A DNA stretch of 23,498 nucleotides from a virus (lineage: Duplodnaviria; Heunggongvirae; Uroviricota; Caudoviricetes). Position numbers and translations under genes: made by a program. This document shows positions 562 to 16,786 of this stretch, piece by piece. The stretch is from positions 1 to 23,498 of the IMG/VR virus record IMGVR_UViG_2617270976_000016; one strand, given 5' to 3'. The notes under the pieces were generated by a model. That model had not been told where the DNA came from. It made no database searches and saw nothing but the letters and a program-made list of their open reading frames with translations. The number at the start of each line of letters is the position of its first letter. Position 1 is the first letter of the stretch.

Positions 562-822
562 ACGCCTTGAACTGTCATATTGCTTAAGTACAGACCGTCG
601 AGACTGGCCATCATTCAATACTTGCACTATTGTAGCGCCCGCCAGTCAGCATACATACTTGATGTTGCATTTATCACCAATCGTATATGCGCTTTTGTGC
701 CCACACGAAGCCTTGCAAACCGATGCCAAGCTTTGTGTGTCCCGTTTTGGTCTCATGCCAAAAATCTACCTTTCCTTGCTTCTGGTGAGGTGACTTCATG
801 TTTCTCCAGCACAATCATAAAA

Positions 823-851
823 TTAGACACAGAGCCATGTTATGTTAATAT
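823..851 (+). promoter_or_regulatory. Candidate sigma70 promoter for the acyltransferase gene (-35 TTAGAC 823-828, 17-bp spacer, -10 TAATAT 846-851)
   Basis: Hexamers and spacing read from the sequence, about 37 bp upstream of the ATG at 888. Confidence 0.35.
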
Positions 852-887
852 ATTCTTCTCAATGATAAATTGTTTTACAGGTAAGTA

Positions 888-2849
888 ATGGGAATTATTA
901 GCTCAACCAATAAAACAAAGTCCGCATTCTATGAGCCATCTGTCGATGGGCTCAGAGCATTAGCGGTTATAATAGTTATTCTTTTTCATGCAGGCTTTAA
1001 ATGGATGCCTGGAGGATACGTTGGCGTAGATGTATTTTTTGTTATCTCTGGTTATCTAATAACAGGTATTTTATACTCAAGTAATTTAAAAAACACATAT
1101 TCGTATAAAACATTTATACTATCAAGAATATCAAGACTATACCCTGCGTTAATATCGACTCTTATTCTAACATTAATTCTTGGCTTTTTGATATTTAGTC
1201 CAAGCGATTTAGAAAGACTCGGCAAAACAATGGTTTATACATTATTGTCCGCGTCAAACTTTTTCTTCATGAATGGTTCCGGGTATTTTGACCAGTCATC
1301 TGAAACAAACCCACTACTTCATACATGGTCTCTTGCTGTTGAGCAACAATTTTATTTCTTGTGGCCTTTAATAATTCTTGCGGGTTTTAAACTAGGAAAA
1401 AACAAGTTAAAATTACTTATATTTTTGATCGGTGTTTTATCCCTAGTCTTATCGCAACTAACAATTAACTCATTCCCTACAGCAAATTATTACATGCCAT
1501 GGTTTAGGGCTTTTGAATTTGCTTTTGGAGGAATAATTTTCTTCATAGAAAAACCAAAAAGGAAAAGTTATTTAAACGATATATTATTTGTAGTTGGAAT
1601 CACCCTCATATTATATAGTGCATTTAGTTTCGGTAAGTCAACTGCGTTCCCTGGATTCAATGCTATGATCCCAGTTATTGGCGCATGTCTTTCTATACGA
1701 TATGGTGAAAAATCAAATATAGGATTTATTCTATCCAATAAATTAATGGTTGGTATAGGTGTAATATCATATTCTGTTTACCTTATTCACTGGCCGTTAA
1801 TGGTGTTTTATAAATATTATGTATTCCGTGATATCTCTACGTATGAAATGGTGTTTATATCCGTAATTCCATTTATTTTAGCTATCCCAAACTATAAATA
1901 TATAGAGAACAAATTCAGGAGAATTAACCTTAAATCTTTAAATAAAATATCATTTTTGTTTTTTGCAATGTCTATTATGACTATGTGCATTTCTGTATCT
2001 TACTTTTACTTTAATGGACTTCCTTTTAGGGTTAATGATTATTTTAAAGAGAAAATTTCTAAATCTGCAGACTTCCATACACAACAGTATGGAGGTGCAG
2101 GTTATAAAGATATAGGTGTCTACGATCTTGGTGATAAGGAAAAGTCGAAATACTCTGCCATATTGATAGGCGATAGCTTTGCTCGTCAATATGCTAGCGC
2201 GATTGACAAAAATCCTTATGGCATGAAATTAATAACATCACTTAAAGATGGTTGTTATTTTTCAATAAGAATGACCGAGTTTAATGGCGGTGCTAGAGAT
2301 GATGATTGCCCAACACATTTGATGACGGCTTTGGACATATCAAGAGATCAAAACCTTCCAGTAATTTTATCTATGCGCTGGTATGGATACAAATATATGA
2401 TTGGCCCTAAAGGTGGTAGCCCAAAAACATTTATTTCTGATAAAGAATATATTGATGAAGTTGTAAGTAATGTAAAGGAAATAGCTAATGCATTTAACGG
2501 AGTCAAGATTGTAGTGATAGGTTCAACGCCAGGAGTTGAAGGGGTTGGAGGTATTGAATCATGCGTTTCTAGACCTGATTACCTTCCTTTAGTATGTGCA
2601 AATAATCTTGTTACTAAGGAAAAGGATAACATTAATAAAAAAATAAATGAATCACTTAAAATAGAGTTATCAAAATCAAAAAACATATTATTCATTGATC
2701 CATATGACTACATGTGCAGTAACGGAGAATGTGCAACCATGTCTCATGATTATAAATATCTTTATTCAGACAACACCCACTTATCTAAAGATGGGGCTTA
2801 TGCGCTATGGTCATCAATTGGTAAAAATATAAGTGAGTATATAAAATAA
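888..2849 (+). CDS. OafA/Oac-like O-antigen acyltransferase (acyltransferase-3 membrane domain fused to SGNH-type C-terminal domain)
   Basis: 653 aa; N-terminal half is polytopic membrane protein with the acyltransferase-3 style N-terminus (…LRALAVIIVILFHAGF…), C-terminal half soluble with GDSF-like motif (ILIGDSFARQ); gene is conspicuously AT-rich and uses AGA Arg codons. Confidence 0.8.
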   Translation: MGIISSTNKTKSAFYEPSVDGLRALAVIIVILFHAGFKWMPGGYVGVDVFFVISGYLITGILYSSNLKNTYSYKTFILSRISRLYPALISTLILTLILGFLIFSPSDLERLGKTMVYTLLSASNFFFMNGSGYFDQSSETNPLLHTWSLAVEQQFYFLWPLIILAGFKLGKNKLKLLIFLIGVLSLVLSQLTINSFPTANYYMPWFRAFEFAFGGIIFFIEKPKRKSYLNDILFVVGITLILYSAFSFGKSTAFPGFNAMIPVIGACLSIRYGEKSNIGFILSNKLMVGIGVISYSVYLIHWPLMVFYKYYVFRDISTYEMVFISVIPFILAIPNYKYIENKFRRINLKSLNKISFLFFAMSIMTMCISVSYFYFNGLPFRVNDYFKEKISKSADFHTQQYGGAGYKDIGVYDLGDKEKSKYSAILIGDSFARQYASAIDKNPYGMKLITSLKDGCYFSIRMTEFNGGARDDDCPTHLMTALDISRDQNLPVILSMRWYGYKYMIGPKGGSPKTFISDKEYIDEVVSNVKEIANAFNGVKIVVIGSTPGVEGVGGIESCVSRPDYLPLVCANNLVTKEKDNINKKINESLKIELSKSKNILFIDPYDYMCSNGECATMSHDYKYLYSDNTHLSKDGAYALWSSIGKNISEYIK

Positions 2850-2864
2850 AAACCACTTTATTGA

Positions 2865-2912
2865 CTGCACCCCAAAAGTTGGACACCCAACTGAGTTGGG
2901 TGCAGTTTTTTA
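2865..2912. terminator. Bidirectional intrinsic terminator between convergent acyltransferase and tailspike genes
   Basis: Stem CACCCAA/TTGGGTG with loop, flanked by A-run on one side and TTTTTT on the other. Confidence 0.5.
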
Positions 2913-4754
2913 TTATGAAGCCAAAGTTCCGGCAACCTTCCACACTCCACCACCTACATGTATCCATTTATATGGATTTCCTGCAGATGGCGAAGCCAGC
3001 TCCCACCTTGCTCCATTGCCATATTGAGTGACACTCGCATCTGGAGGGTTATCACCATAGACATGAGCAATCCCATTTACTAGATAGCCAGTCGCGGTCC
3101 ATAGCTCAGTTCCCCACACGGAGTATTCTCCACCCTCGCTTACATAATTAAATACAGAAAAACTCCCCCCCCATTTAACTCTTGATGCTGGAGGCATATA
3201 GCATGAAATTAAATTAAGAGTTGTACCACCAACTTGGTAGTATTTACTAGTGTGTGAACCTTCAAATTCAGAAAGTGAAGAATTGTTAAATGATACATTT
3301 GACTGCGTTATTATTATAGCCTCAGCGCCACCATCTTTTACACCAACAGCCCTGAATCCATTAGCTACTATAAAAGATTGATTGACCTCAAATATACTAC
3401 CAGTTACATTCTCTACCGCACACCCATTTAATGTAATCCCAGCACATGACAGGAAAACATATGCAGTTCCATTAACCCTCTCAGGAACGCAGCATGTTAA
3501 TGTGCTATATGTTACGTTATTCATTTTTATGGCGTGGCGAGAGCAGTCTCTAACATAGAGATTATTTATATTAAATGATGTTCCTGCGGTTGCAACAACA
3601 TATCCATCCTGAACATCATGCAACATAAAATTAGATACATTCTGCAACCAACTATCACTGGTATAATACCCTGTCATTCCTCTATAACCATATACATCTT
3701 CAATTCGTGTATTGTAACTAATAGCGCTATATATAATATATTCAGACTTTCCTGTTGCAGTGCATTTTAGACTCAACCCAATTATTCTTGTGCTTCTTGT
3801 TTGTGTTCCGCTTAAATCACCAGCAGTGTCACTATCCATGTCTACCGCAGCGATAAAGTCTTTGGAAAAACTGTGCGCCACACCCTGCCACATGCGATCC
3901 GGAACTGTTTTAATATCGTTACCTGTTTTGATTAATCCACAGGAATCCATACCACAGCCCTCCAGCGTGACACGTGGAGGCACGATAGCGCCATACTTAA
4001 TATCGTAAAATCCATTGAGCCTGAGCGTACCTCCTTCATATAGCAGGCATGCAGTCAGCCGTTCAAAAGCATCACTGTTTTGCTCAGCCGTTCTGGAGGT
4101 CATCATTCCACCGTTCTCTACCGGGATATCAATATGGCTTCCCGTTCGCTTCCAGCGTTTTCCTCCTGCCGTTACAAAGATATTTACTCCATCGTCAGCC
4201 TCTGAACTGGAAAAGGCTATAAACGTTCCTCCACCAAGACCTGGTGTATCAGGGTAATATCCGCGAACTGTTATATTTTGATTTGTGAATGAAGGCTCAA
4301 TAGTTCTTAGTGTCGCAATGTCAGGACAGATACCGATATATTTTTCACCATCTAAGCTGAGTAGATCTCCACGCAATGAAGCATCACCCACGCTAACCCA
4401 CGCACCTAATCCAATCCCACCTGTCGTTTCTGGCGTAGAGCCAGCAGGAACGGTTTTAGGTAATACACCATCCCAACGGTAATACTCGCCAGAGGTTTCG
4501 TCGTGCAATGCCTGATTAGTCAAGGTTATCTCTGCGCCAACCTGAAATGATTTTATTAGTATCCAACCCATTTTTGACAATGATTCTTTGTACTTTGACT
4601 CCATACCATGCCAAGTAAGACGTGGATTACCAAAACGATCAGGCCATAACTCATTGGATTGATCATTAGAAAGATGATCGAAGTTCTGGGCGTTATCGTA
4701 CAAATCTTTTGCAGCAGAAGACCCCAGCGGATTGCCAGTATTATAAGTCGTCAT
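2913..4754 (-). CDS. Tailspike / receptor-binding depolymerase (beta-helix type)
   Basis: 613 aa; Gly/Asn/Thr/Ser-rich repetitive middle typical of right-handed beta-helix tailspikes; last gene of tail module; RBS GAGG upstream of ATG at 4754. Confidence 0.55.
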   Translation of the reverse strand: MTTYNTGNPLGSSAAKDLYDNAQNFDHLSNDQSNELWPDRFGNPRLTWHGMESKYKESLSKMGWILIKSFQVGAEITLTNQALHDETSGEYYRWDGVLPKTVPAGSTPETTGGIGLGAWVSVGDASLRGDLLSLDGEKYIGICPDIATLRTIEPSFTNQNITVRGYYPDTPGLGGGTFIAFSSSEADDGVNIFVTAGGKRWKRTGSHIDIPVENGGMMTSRTAEQNSDAFERLTACLLYEGGTLRLNGFYDIKYGAIVPPRVTLEGCGMDSCGLIKTGNDIKTVPDRMWQGVAHSFSKDFIAAVDMDSDTAGDLSGTQTRSTRIIGLSLKCTATGKSEYIIYSAISYNTRIEDVYGYRGMTGYYTSDSWLQNVSNFMLHDVQDGYVVATAGTSFNINNLYVRDCSRHAIKMNNVTYSTLTCCVPERVNGTAYVFLSCAGITLNGCAVENVTGSIFEVNQSFIVANGFRAVGVKDGGAEAIIITQSNVSFNNSSLSEFEGSHTSKYYQVGGTTLNLISCYMPPASRVKWGGSFSVFNYVSEGGEYSVWGTELWTATGYLVNGIAHVYGDNPPDASVTQYGNGARWELASPSAGNPYKWIHVGGGVWKVAGTLAS

Positions 4755-4765
4755 ATTTGCCTCAT

Positions 4766-4790
4766 AAGAGAAAAACCCGCCGTAGCGGGT
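4766..4790 (-). terminator. Short intrinsic terminator between large tail protein and tailspike
   Basis: Minus strand: hairpin ACCCGC-TACG-GCGGGT followed by TTTTT, immediately upstream of the tailspike RBS. Confidence 0.3.
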
Positions 4791-4806
4791 AATATTGATG
4801 TTTGGA

Positions 4807-7524
4807 TTAAGCTACATTGCCGGGGTAGGTAGCGTTATCGTACTGATAGAAAGTGTCGCGATACTCTTTTGCCGTTACCTGACATGTTCCATCAGATTGC
4901 GGTGCTATCTCTGAAATTAATGCGCTATATCCAACACGGGATGACTCGCAGAAAATCAGACGAGGCGATTCAATGGATGGGGCGTTTAGCATGATATTGC
5001 TGAATTTTGCTTGTTCTATTACTGATAGAACATATTCATTTACCCTTGTAGCTGCCAGCAAATCCGAAGCAGAACCATCCTGATAGCGTATCAATGCACG
5101 TGGGTTGTTGAATGTCCAGTCAAGTGGTTCTGATACTGTAATAGTCGTTACGCCATCACTTGTACTCATATCCTCAATCAACGTGCTTATTGTTTTGCTA
5201 CCAGGAATATCATCCGTGAATACTACCCTGTCGCCAACGTTATAACAGAGAGCATCCATTTCCGTTGTTGTGGTATGAGTCAAACGTTGCTGAAGGTACT
5301 TCATCAGACGTCGCATACCTATCTGATAAGCACGGTCCTGGTCAAGAACACCATCAAGCGTATAGTCCTCAATCTTTACCGGAGTTGGGTTATCTGATGT
5401 TCTGCACTGCACCGTCTCTTCAGCCCATGTAGTGCCGTTGATATATGTAACATCCACACCATCATAGTCATCTGCTGACGGAGCAACGAAAGCAGTCTGA
5501 AGCGGATCAGTCATCTCCTGTGGGCTGATTATTCCAGTCCACGTTTTCACACCTTCCCTTGCTACAGATGCCAGACCATCGGTAAGAAGGAAGTAACTTT
5601 TTCCTGCATTTGTCACCTTCTGAAGCATCTCCAGCGCAGAAACAGAATCCGTAGTGGCATAGTCAAAGAATTCACTGCCAGGGGTCCAGTAAGTAGTTTC
5701 TAGTGAGTCAATAGCTTCACGGTCCATCGCTAGCCCCAACTCATTACCTATATGATACAGAGCACCAGAAATGCTCCTTGACACACCAGAATCATAAACT
5801 CGCGTGGCTACAACGTTTACGCGGCGATCTGACTGCGCTGCCAGTTTACCGCCAGTTTCCACAGTAACCGCAATTGTGGGGACGCCAGTATACGATGCTG
5901 GCCGTGACAACAAACGTCCTCGCAATGACTGCCAGTACATGTTATCGCGACTGTTATTCTGTCCCTGCTCGTTCGTGCGGCGAGCTCTCACCTCTACTAG
6001 CGCAGGCGTATCCAGCGTGATTCTTTCGGTAAATCCCAGTCCGTTAATGTTCTGGAGGTAGTACGATCCGGTTTTACTTATCCACCCGACGCCTGAACCA
6101 TATGGCCGGTACTGAATCTCCCACTTTACCTCACGGTATTGTTTGTTCCCTTTTTTGTTATACCCACAAATCCCGTTTGGGAAGAAGAAGTTTACTTCGA
6201 ACATATCAACAACTTCATTTTCTGGGCACGCCAGAAAAGGTCCCATCCAACTATCGTTCTCATTTAAACCGTTGGCTTCAAAATCAAGAACTGTGCGCGG
6301 TGAAAATCCAGGCCATGACGGATCAACGCTGCCATCAATAACCCGCTCCAGAGTTACAGAGCTACCATCTATATCAAGAATCTTATATTCGCTTCCGGAA
6401 TGGGAAACAGATAGCCTGACATAACCTTCAGGAATCCCGGTGAACGGAGTTCCAGTGGCGCTATCGTAAGCGAGGGTTATTGATGCGGTAATCACATCTT
6501 CGCCGACTGGCTCAGAGTGAGGTATAAAATCAGCAATGAATAGTTGGTAATCAATGCTGTTGTACCAGAGAGTTACAGGCATCCCAACATAAGGAGCTAT
6601 TTCCTCCAGCGTGTCACTGGTAATTCTGCTGTAAGCACCATCATTAGTTACCACATAGGAATCAGGAACAATTAACTCAACAATTGCACCAACAGTCCAT
6701 GTATCTGGAAGATCATTTGTTGTTTCATCTCCATCATCCGTGCTCAGCCCATTAAATGTTATTGTTGGTCCGGAAACGGTTAGCGAATTAGCAACAACAT
6801 CTTCCGTGTCCGGCGCGGTTTGCGCCATATCAAGACCAGAACCAGATGCGGTTCCCCCAACCTCTGTGGAATTGAACCAGTTTTCTGATCGTTGATCTCC
6901 ACTAACGCTTTGCCCGGGTTGATACACTGTGTAGTTAAACCCATCACCAAGAGAAGCAATTGGAGTTGACCCTACACGAATATCGCCATCCCCAAATGAA
7001 AAACGCCCTCTCCCCATAACAACAAACATTTCAACTGTCATTACCGTTGGATCATCAACTGAGAATCTTGTTACAGGCTGCACTGCATAGTCAGGATAAA
7101 TACGGCTTCGTCCAAATAACTCACGTATCGGGTCGCCCAATTTTGCGTTATTCGCTTTAGCAGGATTTACATCAAGAGGGTTTCCCGTTCCTGATGAATA
7201 ACCGCCAAGGTCACCAACACCAGGAGCAAAGAAAAGAGCATACGCGACTGATGCAACTGATACAGCAACGGCAATCCAGGCAAGAGCTACAGCGCCATAA
7301 GGGACAGGGTAAATTCTGACATCACTGTCTGATTTGATAGCAAATTCAAACCATGCCTGAGGCGGTATGTTCTCTCCATCAACATCAACGGTGATCGGGT
7401 GCTTCATATCAGGCTTATAGCCCTGAACGTTCTTCGCAAGCCACTGATGGATAGTTACTGCGCCATGTTCATGAGTTTCGAGTGGCTCGCCAGGCAGCCG
7501 TGAAGGATAAATTCTGATAGTCAC
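4807..7524 (-). CDS. Large tail-tip / host-specificity protein (J-like central fibre protein)
   Basis: About 900 aa directly downstream of the NlpC/P60 tail gene; start placed at GTG 7524 overlapping upstream stop as GTGA; alternative ATG at 7407; predicted hydrophobic helix near N-terminus. Confidence 0.5.
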   Translation of the reverse strand: MTIRIYPSRLPGEPLETHEHGAVTIHQWLAKNVQGYKPDMKHPITVDVDGENIPPQAWFEFAIKSDSDVRIYPVPYGAVALAWIAVAVSVASVAYALFFAPGVGDLGGYSSGTGNPLDVNPAKANNAKLGDPIRELFGRSRIYPDYAVQPVTRFSVDDPTVMTVEMFVVMGRGRFSFGDGDIRVGSTPIASLGDGFNYTVYQPGQSVSGDQRSENWFNSTEVGGTASGSGLDMAQTAPDTEDVVANSLTVSGPTITFNGLSTDDGDETTNDLPDTWTVGAIVELIVPDSYVVTNDGAYSRITSDTLEEIAPYVGMPVTLWYNSIDYQLFIADFIPHSEPVGEDVITASITLAYDSATGTPFTGIPEGYVRLSVSHSGSEYKILDIDGSSVTLERVIDGSVDPSWPGFSPRTVLDFEANGLNENDSWMGPFLACPENEVVDMFEVNFFFPNGICGYNKKGNKQYREVKWEIQYRPYGSGVGWISKTGSYYLQNINGLGFTERITLDTPALVEVRARRTNEQGQNNSRDNMYWQSLRGRLLSRPASYTGVPTIAVTVETGGKLAAQSDRRVNVVATRVYDSGVSRSISGALYHIGNELGLAMDREAIDSLETTYWTPGSEFFDYATTDSVSALEMLQKVTNAGKSYFLLTDGLASVAREGVKTWTGIISPQEMTDPLQTAFVAPSADDYDGVDVTYINGTTWAEETVQCRTSDNPTPVKIEDYTLDGVLDQDRAYQIGMRRLMKYLQQRLTHTTTTEMDALCYNVGDRVVFTDDIPGSKTISTLIEDMSTSDGVTTITVSEPLDWTFNNPRALIRYQDGSASDLLAATRVNEYVLSVIEQAKFSNIMLNAPSIESPRLIFCESSRVGYSALISEIAPQSDGTCQVTAKEYRDTFYQYDNATYPGNVA

Positions 7525-7901
7525 TTCCAGAACTCCACTTTGACAAAACGACGTTTGAAACGCGAGACAGGAAGGAAGGTAACGTTCACTCCTGGGTTGC
7601 ACTCTGCGACATGCAATTGGCCGTTAATTTCAACGACTACACCAACATGAGTAACGGTTGACCCGGAATAACAGGCGGCACCGGCACCTATACACGGCGC
7701 GCATTTTTCCAGAGAAAGCATGAGCTTTCTGGCCTCTCGGTTTAAACCTCCGCCGTCTTTTGTTATACCTGAAAAATCTGGCCACAGTGGTAGCCCCAGG
7801 TCTTTTCGTACCTCGTTCACTATGCCGAAGCAGTCAAGTTCAGGATAAGTGCGACCGCCCTTCTGCCATATGACAGAAAGGTATTTATCAGGATTGAACA
7901 T
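7521..7901 (-). CDS. NlpC/P60 (C40) peptidase-domain tail protein
   Basis: 126 aa; Cys motif (ELDCFG) and downstream His (THVGVVV) typical of NlpC/P60 catalytic residues; position in tail-tip module. Confidence 0.5.
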   Translation of the reverse strand: MFNPDKYLSVIWQKGGRTYPELDCFGIVNEVRKDLGLPLWPDFSGITKDGGGLNREARKLMLSLEKCAPCIGAGAACYSGSTVTHVGVVVEINGQLHVAECNPGVNVTFLPVSRFKRRFVKVEFWK

Positions 7902-7910
7902 TGTTGCTCC

Positions 7911-8393
7911 TTAACTCATGTAACGAAGGCCGGGGTAATACGGGAGGGTGTATCGGTGGCGCGGCCATGCGGTATCAAGAACGTTCATATATCCGGCAGT
8001 AATCTGCGCCTGCATGGATGTCCATGACCCGCTTTTAATCGCCAGCGTGTACGGTACAGATGCCGGAGCACTGAGGTCCGTGGAGACATAGTTACGATAT
8101 GTCAGCGATGCCTCTGAAAGGTTATCCAGAGCATTCCGTATGGCGGTGGAAGTAATCCCGTCTATGTTATCAATGGCAAACTGCAAATCTTGTGTACCAT
8201 CGCTGTTTCTTGCTGGAAGGGCAATATCAATAGCCGCAGCCTGAAAGGTTACCACCACGCCACTTTCGGTTGTTGCGGTGATGTCATCGAAGCCTTTACA
8301 AAGATAATAAACACCAGTACCGATGTTTATTTGCAGGGTTTCGATGATCACCTCTTCCCCGGATGAGGCATACAGCCTATTTAGAATCGTCAT
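7911..8393 (-). CDS. Phage minor tail protein
   Basis: 160 aa; sits between distal tail gene and NlpC/P60 gene; ATGA stop-start overlap with the upstream gene at 8390-8393. Confidence 0.4.
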   Translation of the reverse strand: MTILNRLYASSGEEVIIETLQINIGTGVYYLCKGFDDITATTESGVVVTFQAAAIDIALPARNSDGTQDLQFAIDNIDGITSTAIRNALDNLSEASLTYRNYVSTDLSAPASVPYTLAIKSGSWTSMQAQITAGYMNVLDTAWPRHRYTLPYYPGLRYMS

Positions 8394-8863
8394 GGCTCAG
8401 GCCACTCCCTGTTAAGCGCAATATCAATGATGCTGCTGTTGATAATGTAATCAGGAAAATCAGCCCAGCCAGGAGCCAGAACAGGCCTTTCCCACAATTC
8501 CAACGTGGCCGTGTAGCGCCAGTAGTTTCCGCCTTCAATTGTCGGCCCCTCATAGATATCCACGAAACGACAGACATAAACATCAACAACGCCTAACGGA
8601 GATCGAAGAGGCATGTTAAACCAGTCAGCGCCATCCTTAATGGTGTCCCTGAACCATACCTCAAATAGTTGAGCTTCCGGATCCGTAAGCAGCCATGCAA
8701 CCGAGGCCTGAGTTGGCGTTGAAGTATATAATCTCCTCTGCCTCGCCCTGCCGGATGTGAGTTCGGTTCTCAGTAATGGGCTAACTGGCTTTAACCCGAA
8801 CCCTTCCTGCAATGGAACAGGAAGGTAATCATTCGGATAGTTAATGCTGGTCGTTTTAGCCAT
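8390..8863 (-). CDS. Phage tail protein (distal tail protein-like, immediately after tape measure)
   Basis: 157 aa; start overlaps tape-measure stop as TAATG at 8861-8865. Confidence 0.4.
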   Translation of the reverse strand: MAKTTSINYPNDYLPVPLQEGFGLKPVSPLLRTELTSGRARQRRLYTSTPTQASVAWLLTDPEAQLFEVWFRDTIKDGADWFNMPLRSPLGVVDVYVCRFVDIYEGPTIEGGNYWRYTATLELWERPVLAPGWADFPDYIINSSIIDIALNREWPEP

Positions 8864-10189
8864 TAACCAGTTCTCCTGTTAGTGTTCCAGCGCATCATTG
8901 CTTTCGAAATGTCACCTTTCCCACTGGCAAGGTCGCTGGCTGCCTGTTGATATCCAAGTTTTGCCCCCTCTGCCATGGCTTGCTTCATCATGGAGATCTG
9001 AGTATCAGACGGATCACCGTTAACATTCATGTTAATAACGGGAGAGAAGCTTGCTCCGCTGGTTGATTGTTGATTTACTCTGTCCAGTGTTTCATCAAGC
9101 TTTGCTGACGTCTGAGAGGTCACAACTCGCTCACCTTTCTGGAGCAACCATGTTCCTGTTTCCGGGACGCTATCAATACCATCGTGCGCCATACCTGCCA
9201 GGGCAGAAGTACCAACTGCTGCAACAAGTGGTGCAGTTACTGCCGCAGCTGTTGCCATCGCTGCAGGTGCAAGCGCGGGACCAACGATAGGAATTGCCGC
9301 TGTCGATGCGTATGCTGCGATTTGAGCCTGCAAAGATGATGCCTGTGCGTTTGCCAGCATTGATGCCGCTGCGCTTGCCTGAGTGGATTTACCTACCAGC
9401 AATTGCACTGCCTGATATACCAGCCATTGCGCCGCCATATCAGAAAGGGTTTTAATGATTGTTTCACCAAGACCAGAGAAAATATTACTGAAGAAATCAC
9501 CTAAATCTTCTGCACCGTGCACAAGGTCATTAAGGTTGTCAGAAATAACCGAGGTTGCTCCACCAAGAATAGAAGTCATCGCATCTGCAGCAGTCTGGTA
9601 ATAATCAGCTGATTTATCAGCATAATCATTCAACGAGTCCATTATCCCGCTTTGCCAGTCGCCCATCTGAGCATCAGACTTTTTGTAGTAGTCCTCCTGA
9701 ATATCAAGACGGTCATCAAGCGCCTGCTGTAACGCTGCCGTTTCCTGGTCATAAAGCGATTTGCTTATATCACCACTTTGGTACTGTTTCTGTAGATCTT
9801 GCTGCCTGTCGAGAAAACTACGATGGATATCCAGCAATTCCTTCATGCGCTGGCGAGTCTTGTCTCCCATACCTGCGCCGATAAAATCAGAATCATTAGC
9901 TGCCTGGTCATTCTGATTTTGCTTACGTAAATTAGCGGTAAATTCGACAAGTTTCAGATTTTCTTCGTTGGCTTTTTTAAGTGAGTTGAGGCGATCTATC
10001 TCAGTAGCAAGTTGCTCAAGTCGCTCTTTCTGAGCTGCATTAATTCCTGTTAATTTCCCAGATGTAAAATCAAAACGCAGCTTCTCAAGCTCGGTTAGAG
10101 GCCAAACAGATATCGGAATGGAACGCTGGCATAAACCAGCACAACGAAGTACGCCAGCAATGATATAGCGGGGCGATGTCTTGCCCCTT
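8863..10189 (-). pseudogene. Tail tape-measure protein, 3' remnant (N-terminal part deleted)
   Basis: Ala/Gly-rich hydrophobic C-terminal region typical of tape-measure proteins; frame is open with no start codon from 9870 up to a stop near 10190; first ATG only at 9870; no upstream head or tail-tube genes. Confidence 0.5.
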
Positions 10190-10271
10190 CACGCTGGTAG
10201 AACATCAGGACAAGGACAATGACTGCACAAATACCTGCATTCACCATCGCTGACGGATCACTTGTTACCAT
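10095..10271 (-). CDS. Small two-helix membrane protein (possible holin/antiholin-like)
   Basis: About 58 aa from ATG 10271; two hydrophobic segments; start overlaps the end of the upstream holin-like gene. Confidence 0.3.
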   Translation of the reverse strand: MVTSDPSAMVNAGICAVIVLVLMFYQREGARHRPAISLLAYFVVLVYASVPFRYLFGL

Positions 10272-10653
10272 TGCTGGCCCCTCCTCCACGGAATCGCGAA
10301 AGAATACTGAACAGGCTTCCCAAATCCTGACTGTTGAAAAATGTGAGCACTTTGATTGTCATCGCCGCCACTACAACAGCACCAAGTGCGTCTAATGGTC
10401 TGTCACTATACCCGGTAGCCTGTGACAACTTTGAACCAACCAGGCCAGCAGCAAGAACGCCAACAATGAATGACGTCATGAAGTAAGCAATCAATCGTAC
10501 TCGTGTGATATTTGCCGCTGTCGCTACATAAAATACTGCACCAGCGAATGCGCCAAATACCACGCCATAATCAATACCGGTTGCAAGACCAAATACGCTG
10601 GCTCCCATCAGGCCACCAGCCGCAACCGTAGTGCCAGAAACAGGATCGGACAT
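10258..10653 (-). CDS. Holin-like membrane protein
   Basis: 131 aa from ATG 10653 with strong RBS GAGGGGG; Gly/Ala-rich transmembrane segments; first gene after the Q-proximal cassette. Confidence 0.45.
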   Translation of the reverse strand: MSDPVSGTTVAAGGLMGASVFGLATGIDYGVVFGAFAGAVFYVATAANITRVRLIAYFMTSFIVGVLAAGLVGSKLSQATGYSDRPLDALGAVVVAAMTIKVLTFFNSQDLGSLFSILSRFRGGGASNGNK

Positions 10654-10695
10654 TAAGCCCCCTCTTATTGCTGTGAGTCCTCTCAAAACGAGGGG

Positions 10696-10730
10696 ATAAA
10701 AAAAGCCACTTTAATGTGGCTTATGTTTTT
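10696..10730. terminator. Intrinsic terminator downstream of the orphan membrane-protein gene
   Basis: Hairpin AAGCCAC-TTTAAT-GTGGCTT with A-run before and T-run after, so it can act on either strand. Confidence 0.45.
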
Positions 10731-10746
10731 GAATAAATTTTGAAAA

Positions 10747-11352
10747 TTAGTCATTAAGATATTTATTAGCGTCTGATATAAAACCAGAATATCTTCCTGT
10801 CCAGCCCATAGAATTCTCCATAGTGGATATATGTTTCTTTATTATTGTGGAAAGATAAGTGTGAATATCATTTATTGATTTCTTAAAGGCACACCCTTTT
10901 TCGTCTTCAAGTATTGATATCAGCAAACTTACTTTATATTTTTCTAGTTCAAGTAATGCATCCGACATTTTCTTTTCAATATCAGGACGTGTAAAGCTGT
11001 AACCAATGCGGCCTTCTCTAAGCCATTCGGTATGCAACTCATGAACTTTTGTGAGCTGGTAAGCATATTCACTGACATTAATTCTTACATGGGCAGCATA
11101 GTTTCTCTTGTCTTCCCTGCTTTGCTGATATCTAACCGATTCGTTATTTTGGCGTATAACATATAAAGAGATGAGAGCAGGAACCAAACCGCTTATAAAA
11201 GCAGCTATAATAGTTTCCCATGAAAATGAGGAGTCTACTGAAACTGTCGCAATTTTATCAATACTTATCGTGTCTGCTACACGTTCTTTCACATAAAGAA
11301 ATGGTATGCCTAACCACATATTGAGACCTTTATTATTTAAAAAGGCCATCAT
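10747..11352 (-). CDS. Hypothetical membrane-anchored protein (moron; no family recognised)
   Basis: 201 aa from tandem ATG ATG at 11352-11347; one predicted TM helix (WETIIAAFISGLVPALISLYVI) then helical soluble domain; markedly AT-rich; bracketed by terminators. Confidence 0.5.
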   Translation of the reverse strand: MMAFLNNKGLNMWLGIPFLYVKERVADTISIDKIATVSVDSSFSWETIIAAFISGLVPALISLYVIRQNNESVRYQQSREDKRNYAAHVRINVSEYAYQLTKVHELHTEWLREGRIGYSFTRPDIEKKMSDALLELEKYKVSLLISILEDEKGCAFKKSINDIHTYLSTIIKKHISTMENSMGWTGRYSGFISDANKYLND

Positions 11353-11386
11353 AACAAAAACCCGCACAATGGCGGGTTTCTTTTTT
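11353..11386. terminator. tR-prime-like intrinsic terminator immediately downstream of the Q gene
   Basis: Hairpin CCCGC-loop-GCGGG flanked by T-runs on both strands; the minus-strand T-run ends at the ATG of the next gene. Confidence 0.5.
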
Positions 11387-11428: not shown

Positions 11429-11457
11429 ATTTAAGCACTTTCTTGCTCACCCTGCAA
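11429..11457 (-). promoter_or_regulatory. Candidate late promoter PR-prime (-35 TTGCAG, 17-bp spacer, -10 TTAAAT overlapping the Q stop codon)
   Basis: Hexamers read on minus strand; predicted transcript of roughly 60-70 nt ends at the terminator at 11353-11386. Confidence 0.35.
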
Positions 11458-12009
11458 CTTAAATCTGTCGCTATTTGTGCCGAATGCGTCACAAACTGGA
11501 GCGTACAGGATCGATTCTGCCAGACTTAGCCAAGTGTCAATGCGTCGACGACAGGTAATCAGCGGCCAGTCAGAATGTTTAGCCTGCAATTCATTGGCCA
11601 TCTGCAACTTGCTTTTACGTAGGCGATGGCGATCGACAATCACGCTATAGAGCGATCGGTAGTCATCATTCATCAGTACAGAAGCAATCACACCGTCCAC
11701 TAACAGCCCTTCTTCGTCTGAACAGAACGCCAGGCCGCTTTTATTTTTGCTGTTGAGGATTTCACGCAGGTACACTTCAAGTTCTGGTTTGCTGATACCC
11801 GCTTTCTTCATCCGGCGTAGCGCTTCGTTAATTGCCGTTTTGGTGATTTTCCCGGATGCCAGAAGCTGGTTAAACATGTTCCCACCACTACCACCGCCGA
11901 TATAAGACCAGCGGCCCCACATGCGCAACTTACCCTGTATCCAGATGCTTTCCAGAGTACGAAGACGAACCATTTCACCAGATTTACCAACTTCAGAAGG
12001 ATTAATCAT
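11431..12009 (-). CDS. Late-gene antitermination protein Q-like
   Basis: 192 aa; W-G-R-W motif region (LRMWGRWSY) resembling Q-family antiterminators; sits between nin-like genes and the lysis module; RBS GGAGA. Confidence 0.55.
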   Translation of the reverse strand: MINPSEVGKSGEMVRLRTLESIWIQGKLRMWGRWSYIGGGSGGNMFNQLLASGKITKTAINEALRRMKKAGISKPELEVYLREILNSKNKSGLAFCSDEEGLLVDGVIASVLMNDDYRSLYSVIVDRHRLRKSKLQMANELQAKHSDWPLITCRRRIDTWLSLAESILYAPVCDAFGTNSDRFKLQGEQESA

Positions 12010-16709: not shown

Positions 16710-16786
16710 GTGGCATTAGCTCAGTTGGATAGAGCAACGGCCTTCTAAGCCGTGGGGCGCAGGTTCGAATCCTGCATGCTGCACCA
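16710..16786 (+). tRNA. Phage-borne tRNA-Arg, anticodon UCU
   Basis: Cloverleaf traced by hand: D-stem GCTC/GAGC, anticodon stem ACGGC/GCCGT with loop CTTCTAA, T-stem GCAGG/CCTGC with TTCGAAT loop, 3' ACCA; acceptor stem has two G-U pairs. Confidence 0.8.

Follow-up and report, generated by a model that had tools for sequence, protein, structure and literature searches.

In phage lambda, the genes H-M-L-K-I-J encode, in this order, the tape measure, the distal tail protein gpM, the hub protein gpL, the peptidase-fold protein gpK, the ubiquitin-like gpI and gpJ. For the Shigella siphophage Sf11 (PDB 9OCC), a cryo-EM study assigns the tape measure to gp18, the distal tail protein to six copies of gp17, baseplate hub proteins 1 and 2 to three copies each of gp16 and gp14, and the tailspike to gp13 (PMC12724387). 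Here, we analysed 23,498 nucleotides of a tailed-phage record (IMG/VR IMGVR_UViG_2617270976_000016), in the following referred to as the window, in which four consecutive minus-strand open reading frames (ORFs) occupy positions 4807-8863, immediately 3' of a tape-measure ORF, and show the same functional order as lambda. We read this region, with a probability of roughly 0.9, as the tail-tip (baseplate hub) module of a D3/Sf11-type temperate siphophage, carried by an Escherichia coli prophage that was recently crippled by a deletion, and with its large TipJ-family protein translated from GTG 7524. All coordinates are window positions unless another record is named, all genes of the block lie on the minus strand, and orders are read in the direction of transcription (Table 1).

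Gene identities in the tail-tip block

An initial annotation of the window had named a distal tail protein, a minor tail protein, an NlpC/P60 peptidase and a large J-like protein as four genes following the tape measure. Their order could be confirmed, with the restriction that the tape measure in front of them is a C-terminal remnant only. The complete order is: tape-measure remnant, distal tail protein, DUF1833 protein as hub 1, NlpC/P60-fold protein lacking a JAB domain, TipJ as hub 2 or central fibre, and tailspike. In a complete particle, a hexamer of the distal tail protein would cap the tube, trimers of hub 1 and TipJ would close it, and the peptidase-fold protein would act during assembly. 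The tailspike downstream of the block is part of the same tail-tip apparatus.

The J-like label is borne out by the TipJ family model NF040662, which is matched over its full length (model positions 1-477 of 477) with 427.8 bits against a cutoff of 140. Likewise, phrog_469 aligns its positions 2-902 of 903 to residues 1-903 of the protein (E 8e-263). Identity to the closest complete E. coli relative (L001) is 94.3% for TipJ and 98-99% for the neighbouring genes at 7521-9870, a mosaic pattern; in comparison with more distant relatives, the DUF1833 gene and the gene of the following 126-residue protein are the most divergent (77-80%).

In the case of the DUF1833 protein, the Pfam family is matched at positions 2-150 of 150 with 134.7 bits, the threshold being 21. 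When its family profile was searched against the PDB, the best match was Sf11 gp16 (baseplate hub protein 1, 156 residues), in a collinear though weak alignment (E 0.014). It is therefore suitably named a minor tail protein, and is likely to be baseplate hub protein 1.

For the 157-residue protein, Pfam holds no family. Its own family profile matches Sf11 gp17 (9occ_C) with an E-value of 6.5e-4, and an AlphaFold2 (AF2) model of moderate quality, with a mean predicted local distance difference test (pLDDT) value of 72, was matched by Foldseek to 9occ_C/D with an E-value of 6e-9 and a template modelling (TM) score of 0.59. The next Foldseek matches were the tip of phage T1, lambda gpM (8iyk_E, TM 0.48/0.66) and tail-tube proteins. 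A tail-tube-like fold is thus combined with a gene that abuts the tape-measure stop codon, as in siphophage distal tail proteins, and the name given initially fits.

The 126-residue protein is predicted to adopt the NlpC/P60 fold, and the corresponding label holds at this level; any peptidase or amidase activity is putative. Its AF2 model (pLDDT 91) found its best PDB matches exclusively among NlpC/P60 proteins, namely 8ev4 (TM 0.60/0.65), 6b8c (SagA) and 8xup (MepS). Cys24, His85 and Glu100 do not vary among 29 homologues, and the model places Cys24 at the beginning of helix 24-34 and His85 within strand 82-92, thus a conserved cysteine at a helix N-terminus and a conserved histidine on a β-strand, as in papain-like folds. 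Homologues of this protein are widely labelled 'nitrite transporter' in NCBI records, and several Klebsiella and Escherichia phage records have features called 'nitrite transporter' and 'kinase' beneath the match, the latter presumably being the overlapping TipJ homologue. Both names look like propagated misannotations.

A protein search detected full-length homologues of the module in D3, PS-1, many temperate phages of Pseudomonas aeruginosa, and temperate phages of Klebsiella and Escherichia. With megablast, the block had no match in 50,697 phage records.

Junctions between the genes and the start codon of TipJ

The initial annotation had described stop-start overlaps throughout the block. 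This applies to three of the four junctions (TAATG, ATGA and GTGA), and fails for the one between the DUF1833 and 126-residue protein genes, where a spacer of nine nucleotides (TAAGGAGCAACAATG) containing GGAG separates stop and start.

To describe these junctions among relatives, 80 IMG/VR loci were evaluated by tblastn extrapolation; these loci contain 54 distinct variants of the junction between the 126-residue protein gene and TipJ. The one-nucleotide overlap between tape measure and distal tail protein was found in all 37 assessable loci. At the TipJ junction the four-nucleotide overlap was present in 78/80 loci; two loci with an apparent overlap of seven nucleotides could be resolved as GTGA combined with a one-residue N-terminal deletion. 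All 54 variants carry [A/G]TGA at this position. The junction between the 157-residue protein and DUF1833 genes is more flexible, with overlaps of four (44 loci) or 14 nucleotides (19 loci) or a gap of 180 (16 loci), and in some relatives the DUF1833 gene starts with GTG instead of ATG. Finally, the DUF1833 and 126-residue protein genes overlap in none of the related loci: a spacer of 9-12 nucleotides is found in 77/80, and three IMG/VR loci contain inserts of 742-1223 nucleotides. The counterpart of the spacer in phage D3 holds orf23, orf24 and a terminator. This spacer appears as an insertion hotspot, or module seam, as it is occupied by the insertion sequence IS1203 in one E. coli relative (L007, 3704-5027 of that locus); the hotspot was also noted at 3398-4119 of locus L005.

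Because an A or G is expected to precede a TGA stop about half of the time, a lone GTGA says little. It is its conservation among the relatives that is non-random.

Three starts are available to the large ORF ending at 4807: GTG 7602, GTG 7524 and ATG 7407, giving proteins of 931, 905 and 866 residues, respectively. Translation from GTG 7524 is strongly supported by comparison. Firstly, the start position is ATG in 33 of the 54 variants and GTG in the other 21, always within [A/G]TGA. Secondly, the Prokaryotic Genome Annotation Pipeline (PGAP) places a TipJ gene of the same length (2718 nucleotides), with the same four-nucleotide overlap, in five E. coli prophage relatives, and in these (80-96% nucleotide identity) GTGGAGTTCTGGAAGTGA is unchanged, flanked by synonymous sites that vary. 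Thirdly, the position is retained at greater distance: GTGA is shared by Klebsiella phage 5 LV-2017, the D3 homologue begins at the homologous GTG (VIEIYPS...) and the PS-1 homologue at the homologous ATG (MPIEIYAS...), three codons downstream of a stop. Within the protein, the phrog_469 alignment begins at residue 1, and I3, Y6, S8, P14, E16, H18 and W28 remain unchanged down to an overall identity of 33%. The calculated anti-Shine-Dalgarno duplex amounts to -5.9 kcal/mol for GTG 7524, compared to -3.1 for ATG 7407 and -1.5 for GTG 7602. Thus, the initial proposal of a GTG start inside GTGA 7521-7524 stands, and its accompanying statement that an ATG-based gene track over-extends the protein is inverted: ATG 7407 would shorten it by 39 codons, and it is the longest-ORF start GTG 7602 that over-extends it by 26.

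A start at ATG 7407 (Met40), with GTGA as a chance overlap and codons 1-39 as an untranslated leader, could be argued from the fact that ATG is generally the commoner start codon and from the GenBank annotation of Klebsiella phage 5 LV-2017, in which the homologous start was placed downstream. We consider it very improbable. Only 17 of the 54 variants have Met at residue 40, 27 have Asp and the others Glu, Ile, Arg, Tyr or Val; one relative (L009) has Leu at this residue, which eliminates such a start there. Moreover, residues 1-39 are conserved as protein out to the Pseudomonas phages D3 and PS-1, with eight invariant columns, and neither the weaker duplex nor the frequent ATG at the position of GTG 7524 is in line with an untranslated leader. 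As for the longest ORF, its start at GTG 7602 would entail an overlap of 82 nucleotides with the NlpC/P60-like gene, and the frame is indeed open back to this codon in the window and in the closest relatives. However, in 48/54 variants stops close the frame 5-10 codons upstream and leave no alternative start, and four of the five E. coli relatives have stops in the TipJ frame just upstream of the GTG, thereby eliminating a start of this type. Together with the weakest of the three duplexes, and with PHROG and NCBIfam profiles that end short of the upstream extension, this leaves GTG 7602 with a negligible probability, and GTG 7524 as the start that we use here.

In the deposited Klebsiella phage 5 LV-2017 record, the TipJ start is placed at 4795 of that record and the conserved GTGA lies at 4501, so that about 98 N-terminal residues are probably missing from the deposited protein. 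Compared with the TipJ of the window, this homologue also contains an inserted stretch of about 100 residues.

Several points weigh against the overall reading. The start at GTG 7524 is a conclusion from comparison, and the GGAG upstream of it is also constrained by the coding of the 126-residue protein gene (VEFW), so that the conserved GGAG is not independent evidence for this start. With regard to the identities, the DUF1833 link to Sf11 gp16 is weak at the sequence level, the TipJ profile had no PDB sequence match, and single-sequence PDB searches with all four proteins returned nothing significant. The 126-residue protein stays under the Pfam thresholds (CHAP with 17.2 bits against 26; NLPC_P60 unreported up to an E-value of 10), and its best Foldseek E-value is 2e-3. 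Lastly, since the tape-measure remnant offers no credible site for initiation, this copy has probably lost any translational coupling at TAATG.

Regarding coupling in general, at three of the four junctions a stop codon overlaps or abuts the next start, as in coupled operons, and this layout is conserved in relatives. Termination-reinitiation at the overlaps is plausible, especially for the start of TipJ: GTG is a weak initiator that is aided by ribosomes delivered from the upstream cistron. The overlaps could also be a mere by-product of genome compaction, each gene being initiated independently, and this is a reasonable possibility that we place somewhat below even odds. It agrees with the observation that all four genes possess their own GGAG-type Shine-Dalgarno site (-5.9 to -8.4 kcal/mol), with the flexible geometry at the start of DUF1833, and with the spacer in front of the 126-residue protein gene, which is always present and tolerates insertion sequences and genes. 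In addition, an intact relative shows overlaps at 7 of its 15 late-operon junctions in the stretch from capsid to TipJ; therefore, the packing of the tail-tip block is not unusual and is typical of phage late operons. Compaction alone is less easily reconciled with TAATG and [A/G]TGA remaining invariant in position (37/37 loci and 54/54 variants, respectively) across wide sequence divergence, nor with the benefit that a GTG start would draw from coupling. Overall, the initial annotation was right in its family labels and its GTG start, and overstated the overlaps and the coupling.

The N-terminus of TipJ merits separate description: it resembles a ubiquitin-like (ThiS-type) domain that ends at Gly77 and precedes a hydrophobic segment. 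Residues 16-77 give a sub-threshold match to ThiS (14.0 bits compared to 22.5, E 0.075), and Gly77 is present in six of seven aligned TipJ homologues. Fusions of the lambda I-like and J-like proteins (TAPI-TAPJ) have been described in prophages, adjoining NlpC/P60 proteins that lack a JAB domain, and processing of the ubiquitin-like domain by the NlpC/P60 peptidase is a prediction of the same work (Iyer, Burroughs and Aravind 2006; PMC1779556). By analogy, residues 1-77 of TipJ might be ubiquitin-like and might be cleaved after Gly77, or otherwise handled, by the neighbouring NlpC/P60-fold protein during tail-tip assembly, with the [A/G]TGA overlap coupling the synthesis of enzyme and substrate. 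This is a speculative idea that we regard as unlikely. If true, it would represent a working prokaryotic ubiquitin-like processing step; to our knowledge such processing, predicted in 2006, has never been demonstrated. With a start at Met40, half of the putative domain would be lost. Hub protein 2 of Sf11 was modelled for residues 81-827 only (PMC12724387), which is compatible with a flexible or removed N-terminal domain of about 80 residues.

Deletion, intactness and genomic context

The tape-measure ORF in front of the block matches Pfam Tape_meas_lam_C (PF09718) with 38.4 bits against a cutoff of 23, and phrog_2854 at positions 523-853 of 855; TIGR01541 is matched with 93.1, under its cutoff of 104.75. 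A full-length tape measure protein was rejected, since the C-terminal domain is present and only about 410 of 841 codons are left. Its first in-frame ATG (9870) is directly abutted by AGG, without spacing (Shine-Dalgarno duplex -4.0 kcal/mol). The remnant thus appears to have no credible initiation site and is unlikely to be translated.

Similarity to intact tape-measure genes of 2526 nucleotides ends at 10095-10097 and resumes inside the second holin gene. By mapping both breakpoints against intact relatives, a deletion of about 15.9 kb (in the coordinates of NZ_CP030768.1) was located between the second holin and the middle of the tape measure, with the junction sequence CAAGCTCGGTTAGAGGCCAAACAGATAT in the window. 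It has removed the end of the holin, the endolysin, terminase, portal, capsid, connectors, tube, chaperones and the first ~430 tape-measure codons. Because the tube, the chaperones and the full tape measure are missing, no tail can be built by this copy. The stop codon of the truncated holin falls at the deletion junction.

The block itself had been called intact, and so it is: the four genes are equal in length to those of relatives and contain no internal stops. Across the family, the ratio of nonsynonymous to synonymous substitution rates (dN/dS) of the block genes is 0.01-0.09. An IMG/VR contig (L011) in which the tape measure runs uninterrupted across the breakpoint differs from the window at 4/5074 bases (99.92% identical), all four differences being nonsynonymous. 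Judged by this near-identity, the deletion is very recent, and intactness therefore is no evidence of maintenance. In three genes compared with the closest E. coli relative, dN/dS values of 0.3-0.6 were considered as a sign of relaxed selection, and this was discarded as uninterpretable, with 6-8 substitutions per gene.

Late transcription from a Q-dependent promoter could plausibly still reach the block, which lies on the same strand and 3' of a Q-like antiterminator and a holin. Together with the intactness of all genes, this position might suggest that the tail-tip and tailspike genes have been kept by selection for a host benefit, either as a recombination reservoir for host range or as an expressed receptor-binding or depolymerase complex. 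We find this quite improbable. In view of the 99.92% identical relative with an intact tape measure, neither decay nor selection has had time to become visible, and four nonsynonymous differences out of four are what is expected without purifying selection. Furthermore, the exact deletion junction was absent from 185,579 species-representative genomes and from 5,426 complete E. coli genomes.

The host is E. coli, because pgsA is 100% identical, and the prophage is integrated at the leuZ tRNA locus, within the leuZ-cysT-glyW tRNA cluster. In a scan for promoters and terminators, the block was not enriched in promoter-like sites (11, compared to 17 expected), and an Rfam scan detected tRNAs and nothing else.

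Some further features of the window were recorded. Between the Q-like antiterminator and the holin lies a minus-strand ORF of 206 residues (10747-11367; phrog_18859), possibly a moron gene, which had no match in PADLOC and is followed by a terminator-like hairpin at 10703-10722; one relative (L003) has about 500 nucleotides of intergenic DNA in its place. A tRNA-Arg(TCT) gene at 16710-16786, in the early region of the prophage, is also found in this relative. At the left edge of the window, a DinI-like gene (319-561) is about 90% identical to DinI family genes of other E. coli prophage regions. Finally, an AT3-SGNH O-antigen-type acyltransferase gene on the plus strand (888-2849) adjoins the tailspike gene, at a position where relatives have gtrABC-type genes. 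The region of both genes (646-4600) had no megablast match in the 5,426 complete E. coli genomes. Apparently, serotype conversion and receptor binding are encoded here by another cassette than in the relatives, in analogy to D3 with its O-antigen acetylase 3' of the tail fibre.

Table 1. Positions of the tail-tip genes, their junctions and surrounding features in the window
Feature	Position	Strand	Description
Tailspike gene, 613 residues	2913-4754	-	Downstream of the block; Pfam Tail_spike_N (2.5e-20) and many tailspike PHROGs
Terminator-like GC hairpin and T-run	4775-4790	-	Between TipJ stop and tailspike start; from a consensus scan alone
TipJ-family central tail-tip/host-specificity protein, 905 residues	4807-7524	-	NF040662, phrog_469, Pfam FNIII-A_GpJ and Phage-tail_3
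TipJ residues 78-104, hydrophobic stretch	7213-7293	-	After Gly77
TipJ residues 1-77, putative ubiquitin-like (beta-grasp, gpI-like) domain	7294-7524	-	Ends at Gly77; weak ThiS match
GTGA junction	7521-7524	-	Stop of the 126-residue protein gene and GTG in the TipJ frame; 4-nucleotide overlap
NlpC/P60-fold (papain-like) protein, 126 residues	7521-7901	-	Without JAB/MPN domain; AF2 and Foldseek; lambda gpK counterpart
Intergenic spacer	7902-7910	-	9 nucleotides, TAA-GGAGCAACA-ATG; DUF1833 stop 7911-7913, next ATG 7901-7899
DUF1833 minor tail protein, 160 residues	7911-8393	-	Pfam DUF1833 (PF08875) and phrog_396
ATGA junction	8390-8393	-	Stop of the 157-residue protein gene and ATG of the DUF1833 gene; 4-nucleotide overlap; read directly
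Distal tail protein, 157 residues	8390-8863	-	phrog_384; fold match to Sf11 gp17; ring domain predicted to cap the tail tube
TAATG junction	8861-8865	-	Tape-measure stop TAA (8863-8865) and ATG 8863-8861 of the distal tail gene; 1-nucleotide overlap; read directly
Tape-measure gene, C-terminal remnant	8863-10097	-	About 410 of 841 codons left; first in-frame ATG 9870 would give 335 residues (8863-9870)
Truncated 3TM (three-transmembrane) holin gene	10095-10289	-	Pfam Phage_holin_3_7 matches the N-terminal part only; ends at deletion junction 10096/10097
Holin	10258-10686	-	Upstream of the block, same strand
Q-like antiterminator	11431-12009	-	Upstream of the block, same strand

Comparison with described tail-tip modules

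The type of module described here is already known from D3 and Sf11, and the same gene models are already present in RefSeq; the current understanding of phage tail genes and gene overlaps is left unchallenged. The value of the analysis lies in annotation: TipJ would be entered with its start at GTG 7524 and 905 residues, longest-ORF and ATG-only calls both being wrong in this case, and the misleading names 'nitrite transporter' and 'kinase' in public records are flagged. Furthermore, it documents a very recent deletion, as judged from sequence divergence, by which a D3/Sf11-type prophage was turned into a defective remnant.

Compared with lambda, the module is lambda-like in function and stands outside the lambda protein families. 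Membership in the lambda M, L, K or I families was rejected, as hhalign probabilities were below 1% in all four comparisons and Pfam Phage_tail_L and Lambda_tail_I gave no match. At the same time, Pfam FNIII-A_GpJ matches the window TipJ, and the 157-residue model resembles gpM at the fold level. Lambda genes overlap similarly, M over H by four nucleotides and L over M by one. There are two main differences. Firstly, lambda gpK has a JAB/MPN domain and its counterpart in the window has none. Secondly, lambda has a separate I gene, whereas in the window an I-like N-terminal domain is apparently fused to the J-like protein. The latter arrangement, I fused to J beside a JAB-less NlpC/P60 protein, is that of the TAPI-TAPJ fusion operons (PMC1779556), with the difference that the ubiquitin-like fold in the window is suggested by a sub-threshold ThiS match.

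In the case of Sf11, the gene order matches that of the window, with one intervening gene (gp15) between the hubs (PMC12724387). The window 157-residue model superposes on gp17 residues 3-165, and hub 1 is of nearly the same size in both (156 and 160 residues). In contrast, gp17 has 457 residues with a large C-terminal appendage, sequence identity to the window proteins is about 21% or undetectable, and Sf11 is a virulent phage whereas the window holds a defective prophage.

Prophages of the same type are found in E. coli, Klebsiella and Citrobacter (NZ_CP154406.1, Klebsiella phage 5 LV-2017 and IMG/VR UViG_2675903650_000003, among others), with 80-99.9% nucleotide identity. Gene lengths and junctions are identical to those of the window, including a PGAP TipJ of 905 residues and its four-nucleotide overlap. 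These prophages are complete, with a tape measure of 841 residues and the head genes, where the window carries the deletion.

At greater distance, all five proteins compared are homologous in the Pseudomonas phages D3 (Detrevirus, orf19-orf27) and PS-1 (gp71-77), with identities to the window of 31-33% over the full length of TipJ, 38-39% for DUF1833 and 38% for the 126-residue protein. Unlike in the window, the DUF1833 and K-like genes of D3 are separated by two additional small ORFs and a terminator. The overlap of the K-like gene with the start of TipJ amounts to 29 nucleotides in D3 and 47 in PS-1, compared to four in the window. Nevertheless, TipJ starts at the equivalent codon in both phages, GTG in D3 and ATG in PS-1, and a tail fibre or spike and an O-antigen acyltransferase come next, as in the window.

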